Source of the DNA: Thermodesulfobacteriota bacterium
GTDB lineage: Bacteria; Desulfobacterota_D; UBA1144; Nemesobacterales; UBA2774
NCBI GenBank assembly: GCA_963422265.1
Contig: OY729416.1
Span: forward strand, 896,001-960,000
Reading direction: 5' to 3'
DNA length: 64,000 nucleotides
Below are positions 1 to 64,000 of the stretch, piece by piece. Numbering within the stretch: position 1 is the stretch's first letter; each line of letters starts with the position of its first letter. The notes below the pieces were generated by a model. It saw nothing but the letters and a program-made list of their open reading frames with translations, had not been told where the DNA came from and made no database searches. The position numbers and the translations under genes are program-made.

Positions 1-133
1 TCTATATCATCTACATCTCTATATCATCTAATACCACTCTATACGATAAACTATAATACAATAACACTAATTATTATACAATCTAATTGCTCCTACTTAA
101 TCCTACCTATCTAACACCTACCTAATAATACCA

Positions 134-163
134 CTTATAACAAATCCCATCACTCCTTGTCAA
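134..163 (-). promoter_or_regulatory. sigma70-type promoter firing toward the window start
   Basis: Minus strand reads TTGACA-18 nt-TATAAG with TG at the extended -10 position; an AGGAG lies downstream near 89-94. Confidence 0.6.
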
Positions 164-207
164 GAACTATTTGTTAAATTAAAAATGATCTTGGAATCTG
201 TAGTTGC

Positions 208-1844: not shown

Positions 1845-2369
1845 CTAGCGCGATAGAGCCTCCAGCTTTTCCCCTGCCTCCACTGTCTCTATACCTTTTT
1901 CGGTTACTGCCTCCATACTACCCTCATTCACCCATAACTCTATCCCTGACCTATTAATTCTTATTGTCCCCCTTACCCTTGATGTGCTTGCTTTTGCTAT
2001 CCCTAAAGTCCTAAAATCCCCTTCCCGTGTATTGAAACTTAACGCTCTCTTGCTAGGCTTAACCCTAAAATGAATGACTCCCTTGCTTACCTGCAACGCC
2101 AGAACTTCGCTCTCTTCCAATACTTTCAACTCAGAGCCTTTTTCTATTACAAAACTCGCTCCCCTCACGCGCATTAACACTTTCTGATCGTATCCTAGCT
2201 TCGTCCCTGACGTTACAGGAAGGGTATATGCCTGACCATCCCTTTTAACTAAAGTAACTCTTCCAATAAGGGTGCTTGCAGATGATGCCTCTTCTGCGAC
2301 AAGCAGCAACATAAGTATTACGAATACCGATAAAAGCTTAAATGCTTTACTCCTAAACGTAAAAATCAT
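1845..2369 (-). CDS. Exported FecR-like beta-domain protein
   Basis: Signal-peptide-like N-terminus; beta-strand pattern ending VNEGSMEAV...VEAGE typical of FecR domains. Confidence 0.5.
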   Translation of the reverse strand: MIFTFRSKAFKLLSVFVILMLLLVAEEASSASTLIGRVTLVKRDGQAYTLPVTSGTKLGYDQKVLMRVRGASFVIEKGSELKVLEESEVLALQVSKGVIHFRVKPSKRALSFNTREGDFRTLGIAKASTSRVRGTIRINRSGIELWVNEGSMEAVTEKGIETVEAGEKLEALSR

Positions 2370-18943: not shown

Positions 18944-21900
18944 CTAATACATATCAACTTCACTCTCTTCTAGAAGCTCTACATCCAAAGCAAGTGCCTG
19001 TAGTTCCTTTTGCAAAACTCTGAATGATTCTGGAATACCAGGCTCAAAATTCATGTCACCTTTTACTATTGAATCAAATATTCTAGTCCTACCAATGACA
19101 TCATCCGATTTAACAGTAAGAAATTCCTGTAGGGTGTATGAAGCACCGTAAGCCTCAAGCGCCCATACCTCCATCTCACCCAGTCTCTGACCGCCGAAAT
19201 GAGCTTTGCCACCCAAGGGTTGTTGAGTAACAAGGGAATAAGGACCAATAGCTCTTGCGTGTATCTTTTCCTCAACCAGATGATGAAGCTTTAGCATATA
19301 CATAACGCCTACTGTAACTTTCTGATCAAACGGCTCGCCCGTCCGACCATCAAAAAGAATTGTCTTTCCATCCTCAGGCAGTTCAGCCTTGTTTAGCATC
19401 TCCTTTATATGCTGTTCTGTCGCACCATCAAACACCGCAGACTTAACTGGAATACCCCTGGCAAGCCTCCTAGCAACGTCAATAACCTCCTCATCATTCA
19501 ACTTGTCTATTAAGCCTCTTGCTGGTCCTTCGCCATATATGGAATTCAATTTTTCTCTTATTGCTTCGGGACCGAATTCTCTTTCAATAACCTCGTTTAT
19601 CTGGTTGCCCAACTCGTGCGCCGCCCATCCGAGATGGGTTTCCAACACTTGGCCAACGTTCATCCTAGATGGAACACCGAGGGGATTAAGTATCATATCG
19701 ACTGGCCTACCATTAGGAAGATAAGGCATATCCTCCTCAGAAAGAATTTTTGACACGACGCCCTTATTTCCGTGCCTCCCCGCCATTTTATCACCTACTT
19801 GCAGCTTTCTTTTAACGGCTATATTGACCTTCACAACTTTAAGAACCCCAGGAGGAAGCTCATCTGGTTTGATGAGCTTTTCCTTTCTACTATCGTAAAT
19901 AACGTTTGTTAAATCGATTTGCTCTAAAGTCCTTTCGGAAATCTTTTTTACCTCAGCCTCTACATGATCTCCTTTTTCTACCACGATATCCTCAAGCTTT
20001 TCAAAAGGCACGGACCGAAGAACCTTGAGCGCTTCTTCATCTATCTTGTCCCCCTTTTTGAGAACCGTTTTCCTAGATACAGTCAATTTTGCAGAAGCCG
20101 TTCTGTTAATTAACAGTGCCTTTATGCGCCCAAAAGCATCATCCCTCAATGTGTTAATTTCATCATTTTTATCCTGCTCCAATTGAGCTACTTCATTATT
20201 CTCAATGTCTTTAGCCCTTTCATCCTTATCAACCATTCTGGAAACTAGCATTTTTACGTCAATAACAGTGCCGTAAAGACCCGGAGTTGCTTTCAAAGAT
20301 GTATCCTTTACGTCTCCAGCCTTATCACCGAATATAGCCCTCAAGAGCCTCTCTTCAGGGGACAACTGGGTTTCGCCCTTAGGAGATATCTTGCCTACTA
20401 TTATATCTCCCGGCTTTACTTCGGCTCCTATTCTTATAATACCGCTATCATCTAAATTCCTGAGCGAATCTTCACTCACGTTCGGTATATCTTTGGTAAT
20501 CTCTTCTCGCCCGAGTTTTGTCTCACGAGCTATACACTCAACCTCTTCTACATGAATGGAGGTGAAGCTATCCTGCTTAGTAAGTCCTTCGCTTATAAGG
20601 ATCGCGTCTTCAAAGTTATAGCCTCCCCACGGCATAAATGCCACTAGTGCATTCTGTCCCAGGGCAAGCTCCCCATAATCAGTAGATGGTCCATCCGCTA
20701 TTACTTGACCAGTGCTAACGGGCTGCCCTCTTGAGACAATCGGTTTTTGGTTCCAGCATGTACTCTGATTAGATTTTTGAAACTTTATCAGATTATAAAT
20801 ATCAACCCCAGCGTCACCATCTGATACGCCGGCAGATGAACTGACAACTATTCTTGAGGAATCAACGTATTCCACCACTCCTCCCCTTTTCGCTATTACA
20901 GTTACTCCTGAATCCCTGGCCACCGTGCTTTCAAGGCCAGTTCCAACCAAAGGCGCGTGCGTGCTAACAAGGGGAACTGCCTGGCGCTGCATATTTGACC
21001 CCATAAGGGCGCGATTCGCATCATCGTGCTCTAGGAACGGTATTAACGACGCCGAGACGGAGACGAGTTGAGCAGGAGATATGTCCATAAGCTCTACCTT
21101 TTCACGATCAACCATAACAAATTCACCTGCGCTCCTGGCAGAGACAAATTCAGCAATAAAGCGACCGCGTTTATCAACAAGTGCATTTGCCTGTGCTATT
21201 ATATATTTCTCCTCTTCAAGCGCGCTCATATAGGTAATCTCGTCAGTCACTCTGGCATTCTTAACAACCCTGTAGGGAGTTTGGATAAAGCCATGTTCAC
21301 TAATTCTTCCATACGTACTAAGGCTTGAAATAAGCCCGATATTCGGACCCTCGGGCGTCTCGATCGGACATATTCTTCCATAGTGCGAAGAGTGCACGTC
21401 ACGAACTTCAAAACCTGCCCTCTCTCTTGTCAACCCCCCTGGACCCAAAGCGCTCAGCCTCCTTTTATGCGTTATCTCGGACAACGGGTTGGTTTGATCC
21501 ATAAATTGGGATAGCTGCCCGGTGGCAAAAAATTCCTTTACGGCAGCAATGACCGTCTTTGGAGCTAAAAGCTCGGTTGGCATAAGCGTCTCTACTTCCT
21601 GATATCCCATCTTCTCCTTTACAGAACGCGCTAACCTTTCAAGGCCGTGGTAAAATCGATCCTCTATTAGTTCCCCAACGGTTCGCACTCTTCTGTTGCC
21701 AAGATGGTCTATATCATCCGAAGTCCCCCTGCCCCCCCTAAGAGCAAGAAGATATTCAACTGTATTAACGATATCTTCCTTTGTGAGCGTTAATATCTCT
21801 TCAGAGACCCCATGATTTAGTTTATAATTCATTTTGAGCCTCCCCACAGGAGAAAGCCTATAGGTATCACGATTGAAGAACATATTCTTAAAAAACTCTT

Positions 21901-26511: not shown

Positions 26512-26670
26512 TTATTTAGTTTCTTTGTGCAAAACATGGCGCTTGCACCACTTGCAATACTTTTTCAACTCAATCTTTTCGCGATGAGTTTGCTTGTTCT
26601 TTACCGTCGAGTAATTCCTTCTTTTACACTCTTCGCAGGCTAACGCAATCACCACCGTATTATCACCCAT
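26512..26670 (-). CDS. rpmG: 50S ribosomal protein L33, zinc-binding type (absent from the ORF track)
   Basis: Hand translation [52 protein letters not shown]; two CxxC; canonical position after tuf. Confidence 0.96.
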
Positions 26671-26682
26671 TTCTTCCCACTC

Positions 26683-27867
26683 CTATTCTACGATACTAGT
26701 AACGACTCCTGCACCTACAGTCCTTCCACCTTCCCTGATCGCAAAACGCAACTGCTCCTCCATCGCTACAGCAGATATTAACTCCACGTCCATGTTCACG
26801 TTATCACCAGGCATCACCATCTCTACACCCGCAGGTAACACTATAGAACCCGTTACATCCGTTGTCCGTAAATAAAACTGAGGCCTATACCCAGGAAAAA
26901 ATGGCGTGTGTCGTCCACCCTCCTCCTTCCGCAATACATATACCTCCGCCTTAAACTTCCGATGTGGACTTATACTACCAGGCCTCGCCAATACCTGCCC
27001 TCGCTCTACCTCATCCTTATCCACCCCGCGTAACAATACCCCTACGTTATCTCCAGCTATCGCCTCGTCCAGTATCTTACGAAACATCTCTAAACTAGTC
27101 GCTACCGTCTTGCGCGTCTCCCTAAATCCCACTACCTCCACCTCAGCTCCACCCACTACCCTACCACGTTCCACCCTACCCGTTACTACCGTCCCACGAC
27201 CAGATATCGTAAATACATCCTCTATCGCCATCAAATAAGGCTTGTCCATCTCACGCTCCGGCTCAGGTACATATCCATCTACCGCCCCCATCAACTCCAG
27301 CACCTGCCCCTCAGAACCCGCATCCCCATCCAATGCCTTTAACGCACTCACACGAACCACAGGAACCTCATCCCCAGGAAATCCATACTCACTCAATAAC
27401 TCCCGAACCTCTAACTCCACTAAATCCAATAACTCCTCATCATCCATCATGTCCACCTTGTTTAACGCTACCACTATATATGGCACCCCTACCTGCCGCG
27501 CCAATAGTATATGCTCCCGCGTCTGTGGCATCGGACCATCAGGCGCACTTACCACCAATACCGCTCCATCCATCTGCGCCGCTCCCGTTATCATGTTCTT
27601 TACATAATCCGCATGACCAGGACAATCCACATGCGCATAATGCCGCCCCTCTGTCTCATACTCCACATGTGCTATGTTTATCGTTATACCTCGCTCCTTC
27701 TCCTCAGGCGCCTTGTCTATCTCCCCAAACTCCACATACTCCGCACGCCCCGCCTTCCCCAATACCTTCGTTATCGCAGCCGTCAACGTCGTCTTCCCAT
27801 GATCCACGTGCCCTATCGTCCCTATGTTTAAATGAGGCTTCCCTCGCTCAAATCTAGCCTTACTCAT
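26683..27867 (-). CDS. tuf: Elongation factor Tu
   Basis: [38 protein letters not shown]; start set to MSKARFER. Confidence 0.99.
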
Positions 27868-27940
27868 TATACTCCCCCCCATACATTCTTAGTTTTATAA
27901 CCTAAGCTTAAGTTTTTATAATCCAAAATACTATATGCTA

Positions 27941-28013
27941 AGCCCACGGGCGGACTCGAACCGCCGACCTCATCCTTACCAAGGATGTGCTCTGCCGACT
28001 GAGCTACGTGGGC
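27941..28013 (-). tRNA. tRNA-Thr(GGT)
   Basis: GCCCACGTAGCTCAG...CATCC TTGGTAA GGATG...GGTTCGAGTCC...GTGGGCT. Confidence 0.95.
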
Positions 28014-28026
28014 AAAGCGACAAGTA

Positions 28027-28100
28027 AGCGGGAGACGGGACTCGAACCCGCGACCCTCAGCTTGGAAGGCTGATGCTCTAGCCAACTGAGCTACTCCCGC
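28027..28100 (-). tRNA. tRNA-Gly(TCC)
   Basis: GCGGGAGTAGCTCAG...CCTTCCAAG...GGTTCGAGTCCC...TCCCGCT. Confidence 0.95.
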
Positions 28101-28167
28101 ACCCAAAACTTTAAGGAAACTAACGAGAATATATAAAATTCCCTTCAAACCTTCACCTTGCCAAATG

Positions 28168-28250
28168 TGGGGAGGGCAGGATTCGAACCTACGTAGGCTT
28201 GCACCGGCAGATTTACAGTCTGCTGCTTTTGACCACTCAGCCACCTCCCC
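28168..28250 (-). tRNA. tRNA-Tyr(GTA), long variable arm
   Basis: GGGGAGGTGGCTGAGTGG...GCAGACTGTAAATCTGC...GGTTCGAATCC...CCTCCCCA. Confidence 0.95.
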
Positions 28251-28316
28251 CGGTACTTTATGGATACACGCCTAATATACACACCTGTCCAAAAGCTTAA
28301 CATGCTCCTTTGATAA

Positions 28317-28388
28317 AGCTGGCGAAGGGATTTGAACCCCCGGCCTGCTGATTACAAATCAGCTGCTCTACCACTGAGCTACGCCAGC
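28317..28388 (-). tRNA. tRNA-Thr(TGT)
   Basis: GCTGGCGTAGCTCAGTGGTAGAGC...GATTTGTAATC...GGTTCAAATCC...CGCCAGCT. Confidence 0.95.
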
Positions 28389-28521
28389 TATCTAAACTTT
28401 ATTGCATTCATATTTATTATATTCACAATAAGAAACCACAACCCACCCTTATACACATGCTCGTAAGCAGACATCTTATAATAAATTAGATAAATTTCGC
28501 TTGCTCACATAAAAGTTTAGT

Positions 28522-52027: not shown

Positions 52028-54015
52028 CTAGGAGCTTGGATTCGCAGCAATGCTAAGAACGTCAGTGGTTGCCCTAGACCAAGCATTGCCATCATCTTTA
52101 TCCGTGTAGTAAACGTAAGCGCGCAGATACTTGCCCACGTCCCCTTGCCCTTGCACAGGTGTATATGCGTCACTAGCCCCTTCGGGAAATACGTATTCAC
52201 AGTTAGTTGACATCTCCGCGTCATCACAACGCTCCCACCGCCAGTAACTGCGATGCACCGGAGTATTTACAGAATCCCCACGATTACCAGCATCCCAATC
52301 ACCATCATTTACCTCTACCCGTATTACTTGTCCAACCCGCGGAGAAGTATGACCTGAATGAAAAACAGCAGCTGACGCGCTGGTATCAGTGGACGTTCTG
52401 TTTGCTTTTGCCCTTATCACTATGGCATTAGTGTAAACCTTTTCTTCCTTACCATTGTCCACAATCGTCACGTATGCCCTTAGAAAATAATTCGCATCTC
52501 CAGATTCCGGGATAAGTAGGTAGCTTCTATTGTTATTTGCTAGACTTCTACTAGAAATGTCCTCCCAGCCACTAACGCCGTTAGGTGAACGTTCCCATTT
52601 CCAATTCCCTGCACCGTCTCCATTACTACTAGCCTTGCGTTTACCCCTCAGGTTCCCAATCAGCCCAACTGTTACAGGCTCGCCCACTATTGCGGAATTC
52701 CAATGGTCAGGATGAATAAATGCTCTGCGTTGCCCCGGCACACCCTTTATTGTCGGATACTGACGCGACCCACCAAAGTCCCATGGGTCATCTATATTCC
52801 AACCCGCATAAATCCCATCGTAGTCTTTGTAGTCTTTAGGTATTTGAAGATCTCGCGTGGTCTTACCTAGAACACTTGTATTTATATGATCCCCGCGGTA
52901 GCCTTCCATGGAAGTTGATATATCCCAGTATGCTCTATTTATTCTAGGAGACCAATAACCAGGCGCCTCTACCCCAATCAGCCCACCGCGACTTCCTGCC
53001 GTCCTCCTTACCCTGCCGATAGAGTAAACGGAATCTATGATACCCTCTGAAACCCCTCCGACCAGCCCACCAACACGGTATCCCCCTTGCGCGCTACCGG
53101 TGGCATAGGCGACTTGGATGGTGGCGCGCCGGGAGAACCCAACCAGCCCACCAACAACACCTCCCCCTCGCACATTGGCTGTGGAGTAGCTTTTAGTAAT
53201 TTTACCTTTGCTAAGGTTTTGGCCAACTAACCCCCCTAGCCTAATGACTAGAGCACCTTTCGCCACCCCAGTTTGCTTTACTTCACCAGTAACATAGCAA
53301 CTAGTTATAGTTCCCTCGTTCCTCCCAGCCAGCCCACCGATCTCGGAGCTATTATATTTGTTGTTAATATGTTGAGTTATCTTGACGTTTTTCAAGCCCA
53401 AGTTTTGCACTTTACCTAAGGTGCCCACTATGCCGAATAGCCCTAAGTTGAGAGTTCTTGTGGTCTCGATCGGCGTAGTAAAGTTGATGAATAGATTAGA
53501 GATAGTATTTCCGTTGCCCTCGAAGGTCGCGTTAAAATGGCTACGGCTAGAAAAGATGGGTATCCAGCCACGGCCGCCGTTCCAATAAGTAGGATCACCC
53601 GTTTCTGTAATAGTACCATCGTCGTCCTCGTCAAAGTCTAAGTCTGTGGTCAGTTCATAGCCAATGCATCCGGAAGAGGGGCAACCCATAGAGGCTTATG
53701 CGTCGGGGAAGGCAGTAGTGTAGGACGCGCTATTACTAGAACTATCTACCTGTCCATCTCCGTCTAGGTCCCAGCGAATAGCGTTGAGTTGAGCAAGGTT
53801 AGATATTTCTATAAGTTGGTCATCATCAGTGTCGTAGTCAGTAGTAGTTTGGGCGAGTGCAGTATGCGAGAAGAGAGCAGATAAAGCAAAGAAGACTGTA
53901 GATAGTATAGGTGTTAATAGAGAATAAGGTTTCTCATATCGTGGAAAATGGGGGGGGGGGGGGGGGGGGGGGTAGAAGAGATGGTTAGTTTATTGATAAC
54001 AAAGCTATGTTTCAT
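52028..54015 (-). pseudogene. Secreted GLUG-repeat / Ig-like surface protein, out of frame at a poly-C tract and carrying an in-frame TAA
   Basis: RBS AAGGAGG and ATG at 54015; C23 tract; +1 frame gives signal peptide ...FALSALFSHTALA-QTTTDYDTDDDQLIEISNLAQLNAIRWDLDGDG...FPDA*ASMGCPSSGC, joining the 553-aa ORF with GGLVG repeats and two Ig-like modules. Confidence 0.82.
53950..53972. repeat. G23 homopolymer (C23 on the coding strand)
   Basis: Counted directly. Confidence 0.9.
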
Positions 54016-61259: not shown

Positions 61260-64000
61260 CTACAATAACAGCTTCCACCATAATAGTATTCCGTGATCCA
61301 CAACTCCACTAGAAACCTCTCGACGCTCCCCCTCCAAACTTATATCCATCCACTCTCCTACACCTACCTTGCCACCCAACCTATACTCGCGCTCCCCCTC
61401 CCCCATAATAGATATGCCACTGTATGGCGTTACAAGCCACCCACTACCTCGCGTCTCCATACCATATCCAACATCAAACTTCACACGCCCAGAAGATAAA
61501 CCCCGCTTCCCTACTCCTAACCCACTCTCTACCTCACCTCGCCACATTCGCTCTACTCCACTCGCTACCTCTCCCCACTCAGGCTCAAACATCAACCACA
61601 ATCCACGTCCCCGAACCCCATCACCCATCCGCAATGAAAAACTACCTCCCCAATCCTCAAACTCAGACTCCTCATGAAACAACAAATACCTCCCTCGAAC
61701 CTCCACGCTCAAACCCAAACCTCTATGAACATACTCTATACCTCCGCCTACCTCCATACCTACTCCACTATCCGCATCTCCGCCGTCCCATCGCCCCCCT
61801 ATCTCCACACTTGGTAGCAACAAAGAATCTCCTGTCACATACACGTCACGGCTCATCTCTAAACCTAATCGCAAACGACGCGCTACTCCACTAACACCAG
61901 AAAGACCTTCCACCCCCTCTGTCTTTAACTGCACTGCAAAACCATCACTCTTTAACCCAAAATCTATATCTCCCCATCTAGCCAACTCCTGCCGCACTCC
62001 CAACGCTACCATCAGCATATTTACGTCCGCCTCCACTTCTCCTGCTGCATCTTTCAACTCTACCTCACCTATTCCACCCCCTACCAAACCCCATATACTA
62101 AGACCAGGACGTATAGTGTAGTGCGCATATGGAAGAACGCTTGTCAACTCCAAATCTACCTCCCCTCGGATACTACCTGTCTCTCCACTCATAAGATAAA
62201 AGCTACCATCCACCTCATACTCCACCTCTCCAACACTACGAGATATCGCTACGCCCGCCAAACCCCTATTACCAAACCTATAGTCCAATCCCATGTAGCC
62301 CGTATACAACTCACCCTCTGTATCTATATCTCCATCCAAATTACTACCAGAAAATCCACTACCCGCACCACTGCCCCATAACGTCCACCCTCGCATCACT
62401 CCCCCCATATCATCACCACTACTACTCAAAGGAATAGAAAATTCGCTCTGCGCAAACAAATCCCTCCCAGAAACACGCCGTAACTCAACAGGCTCTAGAT
62501 CTAAACCCTCCAACAATTCAATATCTGAACCACCACTCAGACCCAACACCCCATCCACAGCTCCTGCCACAGAACGAGTGTCAAACGATGTCATAGAAAC
62601 ACCACCCAATGTCAATTTAGGACTACCTGCCAGAGAAGAAGAAGAAACAAAACGTTCACCTATTACGTCCACCGCTCCGGTTGCAGCTGCCCGTCCAAAA
62701 GAAGCTAACACTACAGAAAGAACACGCGCTCGCTCCTTTTCCTCGGCTGCACGAACCGTTATGCTAAATGACAACTCACTTGTATCGCCATCTACGTCCT
62801 CAGCCTTGTAGGTGAACTTCGTCTTAGCTAACGCCTCAGTCGGCTTGCCAGTGATAGCGCGAGGAGAATCATCATTAAACTTAAGATCCAATGGTAGAGA
62901 CGGTCTCAGACTGTAGGTAATAACACCGTCACCACCAGTAGCCTCAGGTAGAACAACATCAACAACTTCCACACCAACCGTCCAGACATAGTCCCCAATG
63001 GATTCTGAACCGAAAGTCGGCTTTGGCGAACCCAATACAAAAGTAGAAAAACTACTCGTTTTACCGCATACATAACCGCTGGGCACCGATGCAGGCGACG
63101 GCAGCTTCCTCCACCCCGCACCTTCTACATCGGCAAGATGATATACCGATAGATTACCTGACAGCTCTTCGGGCTCCTCCAGACAGACGATGGCACTTGA
63201 TGATGACGAGAGCTCCACGTCCAGATCTATATCCACGTAAGACGGTTTACCCCCAAAGCTCACGCCCGACGGCTCAGTAACAGTGGGCGCCGCCGGTGAA
63301 AACTCAATCTCCGTCACGCCGTGTCCAGATGGCAGCGTCAGCTTCACAGCCGTCTCGTCAACCGTTGCCGTGATGATGCTGCGACCACCGTCCTCTACTA
63401 CATCAATAATCGTGCCAGAGTCAGCACCGCTGATGTTAATCACCTTCGCAGTGGCAGTCGAGGTAAGAGATTCCGATGCCCCACCAGCGTCCGTCCAACT
63501 CACTACTACTGTGATCACAGAACCTACGTCCGCCTGTGTCAGAACGTAGGTGCTAGTAGTGGCGCCGCTGATGTCAGTCCCGCCTCGCTTCCATTGATAG
63601 CTGAACGTCAGATTACTCGGACCGTCTGGGTCAACAATCGTGCCGGTATCCGCGGTCAGTGTCTGGCCCTGGGTCGCCGTCCCCGTAATGGTTACCGCAC
63701 CAGTCGGCGAGTCGTTTACGTTCGCTACACTTGCTGTAGCAGCAGAGGTCAGAGATTCCACTGTACTACCGCTGTCCGTCCAACTCACTACTACTGTGAT
63801 CACAGAACCGACGTCCGCCTGTGTCATAATGTAGGTGCTACTGGTCGCCCCGTTGATATCAGTCCCGCCTCGCTTCCATTGATAGCTGAACGTCAGACTG
63901 CTCGGACCGTCTGGATCAACGATCGTGCCGGTATCCGCTGTAAGCGTCTGCCCCTGGGTTGCCGTCCCCGTAATGGTTACCGCACCAGTCGGCAAGTCGT
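61260..64000 (-). CDS. Autotransporter/adhesin, 5' end outside the window: tandem Ig-like repeats, putative Ig domain, C-terminal beta-barrel
   Basis: Frame open to the window edge; 95-aa repeats; LPEATGGDG..YSL..LP..L.F Ig-type module; barrel with WTLWG, GYMGLDY, RWDGGDA, VTPY. Confidence 0.85.
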   Translation of the reverse strand, partial: DLPTGAVTITGTATQGQTLTADTGTIVDPDGPSSLTFSYQWKRGGTDINGATSSTYIMTQADVGSVITVVVSWTDSGSTVESLTSAATASVANVNDSPTGAVTITGTATQGQTLTADTGTIVDPDGPSNLTFSYQWKRGGTDISGATTSTYVLTQADVGSVITVVVSWTDAGGASESLTSTATAKVINISGADSGTIIDVVEDGGRSIITATVDETAVKLTLPSGHGVTEIEFSPAAPTVTEPSGVSFGGKPSYVDIDLDVELSSSSSAIVCLEEPEELSGNLSVYHLADVEGAGWRKLPSPASVPSGYVCGKTSSFSTFVLGSPKPTFGSESIGDYVWTVGVEVVDVVLPEATGGDGVITYSLRPSLPLDLKFNDDSPRAITGKPTEALAKTKFTYKAEDVDGDTSELSFSITVRAAEEKERARVLSVVLASFGRAAATGAVDVIGERFVSSSSLAGSPKLTLGGVSMTSFDTRSVAGAVDGVLGLSGGSDIELLEGLDLEPVELRRVSGRDLFAQSEFSIPLSSSGDDMGGVMRGWTLWGSGAGSGFSGSNLDGDIDTEGELYTGYMGLDYRFGNRGLAGVAISRSVGEVEYEVDGSFYLMSGETGSIRGEVDLELTSVLPYAHYTIRPGLSIWGLVGGGIGEVELKDAAGEVEADVNMLMVALGVRQELARWGDIDFGLKSDGFAVQLKTEGVEGLSGVSGVARRLRLGLEMSRDVYVTGDSLLLPSVEIGGRWDGGDADSGVGMEVGGGIEYVHRGLGLSVEVRGRYLLFHEESEFEDWGGSFSLRMGDGVRGRGLWLMFEPEWGEVASGVERMWRGEVESGLGVGKRGLSSGRVKFDVGYGMETRGSGWLVTPYSGISIMGEGEREYRLGGKVGVGEWMDISLEGERREVSSGVVDHGILLWWKLLL
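63440..64000 (-). repeat. 285-bp tandem coding repeat (at least 2 copies)
   Basis: GTTACCGCACCAGTCGGC at 63691 and 63976; peptide PTGAVTITGTATQGQTLTADTGTIVDPDG occurs twice. Confidence 0.92.

Follow-up and report, generated by a model that had tools for sequence, protein, structure and literature searches.

Why does a gene for elongation factor Tu (EF-Tu) use codons so unlike those of the operon in which it lies? The question is raised by tuf in a window of 64,000 nucleotides from a Thermodesulfobacteriota bacterium, which corresponds to positions 896001-960000 of a closed 1.78-Mb contig with 44% GC. The genome is labelled G000 here; coordinates that carry this label are those of the contig, and all others are those of the window. 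The gene is a tufB-type copy at 26683..27867 on the minus strand, and its sense strand is rich in G and almost devoid of C wherever the code leaves a choice. Based on a comparison of copies within this genome and among its relatives, the odd codon usage of tuf is probably linked to the duplication of the gene and to gene conversion between its copies.

The coding sequence comprises 394 codons and a TAG stop. The frame is open as far as 27882, and the end at 27880 given in an earlier note on this DNA, which was made from the letters of the window, falls within the G-run upstream of the start. The product matches the TIGR00485 equivalog model over residues 1-394 at 716.2 bits (cut-off 522.4), as a full-length EF-Tu should, and by this measure tuf appears to be an ordinary, functional EF-Tu gene. 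Its codons were recounted, and every figure of the earlier note was reproduced. Lysine is encoded by AAG 17 times and never by AAA, glutamine by CAG 7 times and never by CAA, and glutamate by 38 GAG and three GAA (codons 233, 379, and 394, two of them within the last 16 codons). TTA (12) and TTG (13) account for 25 of the 28 leucine codons, the other three being CTN, and ATA accounts for 17 of the 19 isoleucine codons. Only 19 of 394 codons end in C, and the segment 27301-27480 of the plus strand contains 72 C and 14 G. Of the 194 four-fold sites of tuf, 3 are C (0.015), and G has a frequency of 0.47, whereas the mean four-fold C of the genome is 0.211 (sd 0.062; 1453 open reading frames, ORFs, of at least 100 aa); the scarcity of C has a binomial P of 3e-16. 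The resulting G-over-C skew is 0.81 at third positions (sk3) and 0.50 overall.

The neighbours of tuf on the same strand do not share this usage. As the earlier note had said, rplL and rpmG use GAA and AAA freely: the AAG/AAA and GAG/GAA counts are 4/12 and 11/12 in rplL, 6/4 and 2/3 in rpmG, and 46/43 and 57/65 in rpoB. Its description of the protein as enriched in Gly, Val, and Arg holds up weakly. EF-Tu of G000 has eight lineage-specific replacements with a net gain of five G at codon positions 1-2, and its terminal branch is long (0.16 in a 17-genome tree).

The altered composition belongs to a tract with sharp edges, and the tract is a repeat. A megablast self-comparison and a 60-nt composition profile place it at 26687..27886 (minus strand), where it is 100% identical over 1200 bp to a second tuf copy at G000 802237-803436 in the context rpsG-fusA-tuf-rpsJ. 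The earlier note had suggested looking for this copy at the fusA locus, and it provides the key comparison of the analysis. Counts of C and G per 60 nt switch at the edges of the repeats, in tuf as well as in the other long repeats described below (groESL and both units of a duplicated operon), while fusA, rpsJ, and rpmG, 12-41 nt from tuf, have ordinary composition. On the 3' side the signature stops sharply before rpmG (L33, TIGR01023 match; 26512..26670, minus strand), which has ordinary codons and begins 12 nt downstream of tuf; no terminator-like site is present in that 12-nt gap. On the 5' side the repeat includes the ribosome-binding stretch GGGGGGGAG (27872..27880, minus strand), the sequence upstream of the start reads ...ATGTATGGGGGGGAGTATA-ATG, and the 19 nt from the repeat edge to the ATG contain no C. 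Non-coding spacers inside the tracts are likewise poor in C (0.03-0.10). In the weakly constrained beta-domain tracts, introduced below, codon position 2 has 0.11 C and 0.35 G, whereas elsewhere in the genome these values are 0.21 and 0.18. The skew thus acts at the nucleotide level and not at the codon level.

In a 400-nt scan of the contig, 16 segments stand out by an absolute GC skew that is about 0.5 or higher. All long skewed segments are G-rich on the sense strand of their own gene and lie in dispersed near-identical repeats identified by the self-comparison. Besides tuf, the class consists of groES-groEL in two copies (99.4% identical), the two transcription units of one operon, each in two copies (99.5% and 99.9% identical), and the beta-domain ends of five autotransporter-like ORFs (90-94% identical). 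By Pfam matches the duplicated operon encodes two ADC-like proteins (ADC1 and ADC2), followed by thiolase-like, DUF35/OB, MaoC-like, and AmiS/UreI proteins. The window contains the promoter-proximal end of the ADC1-ADC2 unit (1..181, minus strand; the unit spans G000 893753-896181), whose 232-nt upstream spacer has 0.04 C. It also contains one of the five paralogous beta-domain ends (61260..62600, minus strand; sense-strand GC skew 0.63, third-position C 0.05), the Autotransporter match of which in Pfam is below the cut-off (23.6 vs 26 bits). The distribution of four-fold C over the 1453 ORFs peaks mainly at 0.21 (sd 0.06), and a distinct group lies below 0.04. This group contains 15 ORFs: seven genes, each present twice, make up 14 of them, and the remaining one is 102 aa long with only 31 four-fold sites. 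The two groEL copies come next, at 0.06. Members of the class have in common AAG, GAG, CAG, ATA, GTA/GTG, TTG/TTA, ACG, and GCG, prefer T over C in two-fold pyrimidine codons, and nearly lack AGA. Their GC content is 0.48-0.51 vs 0.44 for the genome.

This is not the usual bias of highly expressed genes, as the earlier note had already proposed. Translational selection should give ribosomal-protein genes and other single-copy highly expressed genes the same preferred codons, and neither the ribosomal-protein genes nor rpoB or fusA share the pattern. The ribosomal-protein regions (27 ORFs) have AAG 0.57, GAG 0.58, ATA 0.49, and third-position G 0.28, and hence no G-enrichment; they do avoid C mildly (third-position C 0.13 vs 0.21). 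The earlier note had also raised the prospect of finding the same bias in other single-copy highly expressed genes. Other genes do have it, namely groESL and the six genes of the thiolase/ADC operon, but all of them are near-identical duplicates.

Some features of the class members deserve description in their own right. The beta-domain tract of the window belongs to a 2073-aa autotransporter-like ORF with five paralogues, whose 3' part occupies 61260-64000 and which extends to G000 963481. The two copies of the metabolic operon lie at G000 890773-896181, of which positions 1-181 of the window are a part, and at G000 1299022-1305622. The first copy has unit 1 followed by unit 2 and lacks the extra thiolase gene of the other, in which the order is unit 2, extra thiolase, unit 1; this circular permutation points to an intermediate that was tandem or circular. 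The gene mutS (G000 1431554-1434148) immediately precedes groESL copy 1, and the same neighbourhood is present in the relatives G003 and G025, so this groESL copy is ancestral. An N-terminal fragment of mutS with two stop codons is found at about 20.3 kb (G000 20316-20570).

If the signature depends on duplication, it should follow copy number among relatives. For tuf it does. The signature is present in 20 of 20 two-copy genomes, with four-fold G 0.44-0.72, AAG 80-100% (lowest 20/25), ATA 73-100%, and GAG and CAG also in the majority or used throughout. It is absent from all 12 single-copy genomes, which belong to a sister family with genomes of about 1 Mb; there four-fold G is 0.02-0.11, AAG accounts for 3-8 of 25-27 lysine codons, and AAA, GAA, CAA, and ATT are preferred. 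The same recoding of tuf occurs in other families of the order, and across the 18 genomes of one genus the composition of the gene is steady. The ADC1/ADC2 pair gives a second comparison. Where the pair is apparently single-copy, the signature is found in none of 16 genomes: four-fold G is 0.01-0.11 in nine of them and reaches 0.31 in the others, and isoleucine is ATT or ATC. Where it is in two copies, two of three genomes carry the signature, G000 and G025, which are from different families, and G003 does not. The ADC genes of G025 have four-fold G 0.67-0.73 and AAG in 24 of 25 lysine codons. A scan of the whole G025 contig gives as clear outliers only the two tuf copies and the duplicated ADC genes, while its single-copy groEL (sk3 0.01) and thiolase gene (sk3 -0.07) are ordinary; its many insertion-sequence-like repeats have mild skew. 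The thiolase orthologue has ordinary usage in 19 of 19 relatives (sk3 -0.30 to +0.25, vs 0.87 in G000), only one of which, G003, has two near-identical copies. The groEL gene is extreme in G000 only, and the 98.6% identical pair of G003 has a weak signature. In every case examined, duplication is necessary for the signature, but it is not sufficient.

The two tuf copies of G000 are identical because they change together, and not because of how the genome was assembled. In contigs from four public sequencing runs (four studies), the tract from 26687 to about 27800 forms a separate contig in each. For the three runs in which flank depth can be compared, this contig has about double the word depth of its surroundings, and from its loose ends at 26687 and 27886 the assembly continues into the sequence that flanks the other copy. 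The presence of the same tract in four independent runs argues against an assembly artefact. Relative to the window, the strains sampled have 0, 3, 12, and 17 changed letters among about 1120 of tuf, yet the tract still assembles as a single contig in each, and hence the two copies must have changed together. In 20 other genomes the two copies of a genome differ from each other at 0-65 of 1182 nt; between genomes, where the comparison was made as EF-Tu protein identity only, the figure is 80-90%. The two copies, although located in different operon contexts, are thus more alike within genomes than between them, as concerted evolution requires.

The 3' end of tuf provides something close to a dose-response. 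Over the last 19 codons (26686..26742, minus strand) the bias toward G-ending codons lapses, with codons such as ATC, GTC, GAA, ACT, and GCA, and in the last two 15-codon windows of the G000 gene G occupies 1 of 12 and 0 of 12 eligible sites. The near-normal usage that the earlier note saw here is real and conserved: in 25 pooled two-copy tuf genes, the fraction of G where a synonymous option exists is 0.23-0.30 in codons 376-390 and 380-394 and 0.63-0.83 elsewhere. Differences between copies are three times denser in the same region: each genome has 0.0137 of them per nt over the final 60 nt vs 0.0046 mid-gene (17 genomes). The bias lapses where the copies differ more often. In Salmonella, according to the portion of PMC5485169 that was available, selection for conversion at tuf nt 1126 yields it 100-500 times less often than selection at nt 362 or 679 does.

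In which direction do new variants go? Differences between tuf copies in the 18 genomes of the genus were polarised by majority rule among the other genomes; 132 were polarised and 125 left unassigned. Young variants lose G in 76 cases (G>A 45, G>T 29, G>C 2) and gain it in 13 (A>G 10, T>G 2, C>G 1), with P = 5e-12. Singletons among the five autotransporter copies agree, with 48 losses and 28 gains of G (P = 0.03) and with 24 gains and 13 losses of C. As the composition of tuf is stable across the genus while young variants lose G, mutation erodes G and something restores it at fixation. The bias thus acts at fixation and not at mutation, and a mutational origin of the skew is rejected on these counts in tuf and the autotransporter family.

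A fixation bias linked to conversion would fit all of these observations. According to this explanation, tuf evolves in concert with its twin, gene conversion keeping the two copies identical. Conversion, or a process tightly coupled to it, would favour G (more broadly, purines and keto bases) and disfavour C on the sense strand at every free site, and the result would be AAG, GAG, CAG, ATA, NNG at four-fold sites, and NNT over NNC. We infer that the bias arises during the processing of mismatched heteroduplex between the copies. Such heteroduplex might consist mostly of the sense strand of the recipient, exposed by transcription or as the lagging-strand template, paired with the antisense strand of the donor. 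If MutS aborts G.T and purine-purine mismatches more efficiently than A.C and pyrimidine-pyrimidine mismatches, with C.C above all escaping, then the sense-strand changes C>G, C>A, T>G, T>A, A>G, and C>T would escape rejection more often than their reverses and so would spread. The model predicts that at free sites G is far above T and A and that both are far above C. It also predicts ATA for isoleucine and T over C in pyrimidine-only codons, and both predictions match what is observed. The choice of strand might come from transcription, through the exposed non-template strand, or from lagging-strand gaps. Two premises of the model, that G.T is handled better than A.C and that C.C goes unseen, belong to the classical literature. 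Otherwise it was derived from an order of mismatch recognition given in the part of PMC5485169 that was available: recognition is highly efficient for A/C and T/G, poor for G/A and C/T, low for T/T, and intermediate for A/A. According to the same source, MutS lowers tuf conversion in Salmonella 200- to 1000-fold in a manner that depends on mismatch type.

The strand-and-MutS mechanism is our own derivation and is offered tentatively, with the expectation that it may well prove wrong. Similarly doubtful is the wider proposal that strand-asymmetric biased gene conversion operates across the order, with mismatch surveillance passing C.C, C.T, T.T, and A.C and aborting G.T, G.G, and A.A. MutS scores above its cut-off in 30 of 31 genomes (the miss, G017, is 83% complete) and is thus present in skewed and unskewed lineages alike, so something else must set the differences between lineages. 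NucS scores above its cut-off in none of the 31 genomes. Repair-gene content, as MutS or NucS, was rejected as a cause on the ground that neither separates skewed from unskewed lineages. Hyperthermophily with its deamination was also rejected: the reverse-gyrase model TIGR01054 gives nothing above its cut-off in the 31 genomes, only topoisomerase-like partial matches. Cumulative skew places the terminus near 510 kb and the origin within 1.34-1.7 Mb, and most genes of the class are co-oriented with replication. The two groESL copies are oppositely oriented, so they cannot both be co-oriented and at least one is head-on to replication, which argues against a purely replication-based choice of strand.

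Several other observations weigh against a link between conversion and composition, or blur it. Some duplicates are not skewed: the groEL pairs of G006 (97.6% identical) and G018 (94.5%) show no signature, that of G012 (99.4%) has G-enrichment without loss of C, the two-copy thiolase and ADC genes of G003 keep ordinary usage, and a 2-kb duplicate in G000 itself (617762 / 1108459; 97% identity) is unskewed. Conversely, the single-copy groEL of G019 is intermediate (four-fold C 0.085), as is the single-copy thiolase gene of G000 at 1301535-1302686 (0.041). Within the family of G000, four genomes have a weaker tuf signature (sk3 0.20-0.28). In the autotransporter-like ORFs, the conserved repeat begins about 700 columns before the skew does. 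The operon tracts are whole transcription units, and copy number may therefore be confounded with dosage or expression. It is also confounded with lineage, all 12 single-copy tuf genomes being of one family; the genomes are kin, so that counts overstate independence, and single-copy status in draft genomes is based on search hits. Finally, the ORFs of G000 were called by a crude greedy method rather than a gene finder, and polarisation was by majority rule. As for the unskewed duplicate, G000 617762-619776 and 1108459-1110473 lie in ORFs of about 1060 aa, which are 97% identical over the first 2 kb and then divergent, with ordinary composition.

Could the tracts instead be foreign? The earlier note called tuf alien to its own operon, and a donor with such codon usage throughout might have supplied tuf and the other tracts, which then replaced the native copies. 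The sharp shift of composition at the tract edges and the elevated GC content of the tracts would agree with this, and in the EF-Tu tree of 17 genomes G000 is part of an unresolved polytomy and does not join the other members of its own family, whose group is weakly supported. Owing to the polytomy, the tree neither shows nor contradicts vertical descent of this tuf, with which it is compatible. However, the closest EF-Tu (90% identity) comes from a genome of the same family, and the protein does not group with a distant donor against taxonomy. The five most skewed sequences of the tree, from five families, do not form a clade, and the twin copy is identical. Likewise, the ADC1 protein is closest (95-96%) to those of same-family genomes with ordinary usage. 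The tracts have conserved operon contexts (tRNA-tuf-rpmG-secE-nusG, fusA-tuf-rpsJ, mutS-groESL), and none of the genomes examined has such usage genome-wide. The matches listed in a search of genome contigs with EF-Tu are all from distant phyla, at 68-77% identity, and a phylum-level search gave no additional material outside the same order. Horizontal transfer is very improbable, a common donor is rejected on the EF-Tu tree and the protein identities, and the label of an alien gene finds no support. Expression is a stronger rival, though still an unlikely one. EF-Tu and GroEL are classic examples of the most abundant proteins, and the most transcribed genes might be duplicated for dosage while their sense strand is shaped by transcription-associated deamination of the exposed non-template strand (C>T, A>G) or by mRNA-level selection for purine loading, weak structure, or scarcity of the C-rich, G-poor sites of Rho. 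The ADC-like pair is 85-96% identical across the order and more conserved than EF-Tu, which suggests very high expression; in addition, ribosomal-protein genes avoid C mildly, the operon tracts span promoter to terminator, and the lapse over the last 50 nt of tuf would also fit evasion of Rho. Expression has difficulty, however, with the opposite coding of the same genes where they are single-copy (ADC, with isoleucine as ATT or ATC throughout) and with G025, in which single-copy groEL is ordinary while tuf is extreme. Nor would it account for a signature that ends at the tuf stop although rpmG follows 12 nt on with no terminator-like site between, that is confined to the 3' third of the autotransporter ORFs, and that lacks its G-enrichment in ribosomal-protein genes. 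Young variants lose G, so mutation does not build the signature.

A different order of events has been proposed for gene-conversion repeats of intense nucleotide skew (GRINS), described in 2021 in PNAS (PMC8256042): error-prone synthesis or the like makes a skewed stretch, whose low complexity then renders it prone to duplication and conversion. The accessible text of that paper proposes this order and reports single-copy skewed regions, and in G000 a few single-copy genes are intermediate. The tuf sense strand has 74% G+T at third positions, which might matter in that RecA prefers GT-rich DNA. However, the full signature occurs in no apparently single-copy orthologue examined (ADC 0/16, tuf 0/12, thiolase none in 19 relatives, of which G003 alone is two-copy), and young variants go in the opposite direction. 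As far as the available part of PMC6053082 goes, tuf was duplicated long ago, before the order arose, yet the intensity of the signature varies among families. The skew is therefore unlikely to have come first, and we rate this order slightly below expression. Conversion between copies, acting at fixation, remains the explanation that we favour.

The surroundings of tuf are conventional. Upstream, outside the repeat, is a cluster of tRNA genes for Thr(TGT), Tyr, Gly, and Thr(GGT) (27941..28389, minus strand; ARAGORN), and downstream are rpmG, secE, nusG, rplKAJL, and rpoB. Elsewhere in the window, 52058-52792 is repeated at G000 1638465-1639199 with 92.8% identity in a surface-protein-like frame with a GC skew of about 0.24. 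At 1845-2369 (minus strand) is a 174-aa ORF with a signal-peptide-like start and no NCBIfam match; it is apparently single-copy, with sk3 0.56 and four-fold C 0.10. An element of about 42 nt with a C5/G5 hairpin is present in more than 100 copies in the genome (for example at G000 271700-272300, 8.0-8.7 kb, 1737-1738 kb, and 1777-1779 kb), partly in tandem arrays with a period of 70-72 nt. The units of these arrays are similar over their whole length, and therefore the arrays do not look like CRISPR.

What does a recoded tuf offer? GRINS were described without a mechanism and mostly in polyketide synthases, where a tangled gene history and selection for diversification confound tests. By comparison, tuf is the simplest system for such recoding: it is essential, slowly evolving, and two-copy, and its conversion kinetics have been measured in Salmonella. 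The order supplies natural replicates, with tuf in one or two copies and with the ADC-like pair and groESL duplicated in some genomes only. As a result, the role of conversion as the cause of skew, the fixation bias, and the strand and repair system that set its direction become tractable by comparison or by marker conversion. There is also a warning in these data, as codon-usage outliers of this kind may be mistaken for signals of horizontal transfer or of expression, and two common phylogenetic markers, tuf and groEL, are under a compositional drive specific to the lineage. Of the five genomes in which tuf is most extreme, three (G000, G020, and G025) have longer EF-Tu branches. If strand-asymmetric conversion is true, it would be the missing mechanism of GRINS, and every concertedly evolving gene would be driven to become G-rich and nearly C-free. 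A force driven by recombination would then be able to overcome codon selection for translation in the genes that a cell expresses most highly.

GC-biased gene conversion (gBGC) is a fixation bias linked to recombination that mimics selection, affects non-coding as well as coding sites, and is counteracted by mutation toward A and T. The process proposed here would be alike in each of these respects. The difference lies in symmetry. gBGC is strand-symmetric and raises G and C together, whereas at four-fold sites of the tracts G is 0.4-0.8 and C 0.01-0.09 on the same strand.

The tuf genes of E. coli and Salmonella use ordinary optimal codons. The likeness lies in their concerted evolution as tufA and tufB, which is described in the accessible parts of PMC5485169 and PMC6053082: two copies in str-operon and tRNA-operon contexts, identity limited to the coding region, homogenisation within strains, and weaker conversion at the 3' end. 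Conversion between the Salmonella copies is RecA-dependent (PMC5485169, same parts). In the parts available these studies report no compositional consequence, and PMC6053082 there contains none of the terms 'GC content', 'biased', and 'skew'.

The closest known counterparts of the tuf tract are GRINS, which the accessible text of PMC8256042 defines as duplicated sequences of more than 500 bp and more than 80% identity with mean absolute GC and TA skews each above 0.15. A search of the literature found no account of skewed or recoded tuf or groEL duplicates, the GRINS papers found all being on polyketide or nonribosomal peptide synthetases; the main text of PMC8256042 has no mention of tuf, elongation factor, or chaperonin, although its supplementary gene-family tables may list tuf or groEL. 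Here the skews were measured in 150-nt windows with 30-nt steps. The tuf repeat, with 1200 bp at 100% identity and a mean absolute GC skew of 0.50 (genome background 0.17), exceeds three of the four thresholds, while its mean absolute TA skew of 0.11 (background 0.13; third-position TA skew +0.14) is below the fourth. Three sister tracts reach or touch all of them, with GC and TA skews of 0.54 and 0.19 in groESL, 0.56 and 0.16 in the thiolase unit, and 0.63 and 0.15 in the beta-domains; the TA skew of the ADC unit is 0.08. In GRINS the two skews are correlated (r = 0.70) and both signs occur on one strand with abrupt switches between them, whereas in tuf the GC skew is uniformly positive (0 of 36 windows are negative), TA skew is at background, and their correlation is r = 0.17. 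The passenger regions of the autotransporter-like ORFs, which contain tandem and dispersed repeats and have a GC content of 0.57-0.63 vs 0.44 for the genome, show weak but correlated skews (r = 0.72), a hallmark of GRINS that the tuf tract lacks. Third positions are purine-loaded here (ATA, GTA), unlike in GRINS, and the carriers differ as well: polyketide synthase modules, with transposases as the commonest others, in GRINS, but tuf, groESL, and a metabolic operon in G000.

Because its TA skew is below the threshold, the tuf tract is filed as a GC-skew-only variant in housekeeping genes rather than as a formal member of GRINS. Nevertheless, the two have much in common. Both are duplicated over more than 500 bp with high identity and have an intense GC skew that is strongest at third positions, as it is in tuf, whose encoded protein appears to be a full-length EF-Tu above the equivalog cut-off. 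In both, functional proteins are recoded synonymously with some shift to residues like Gly and Val. Each is linked to gene conversion, and in each the copies are near-identical within a genome and different between relatives. Judged by these likenesses, the tuf tract may well work in the way that GRINS do.

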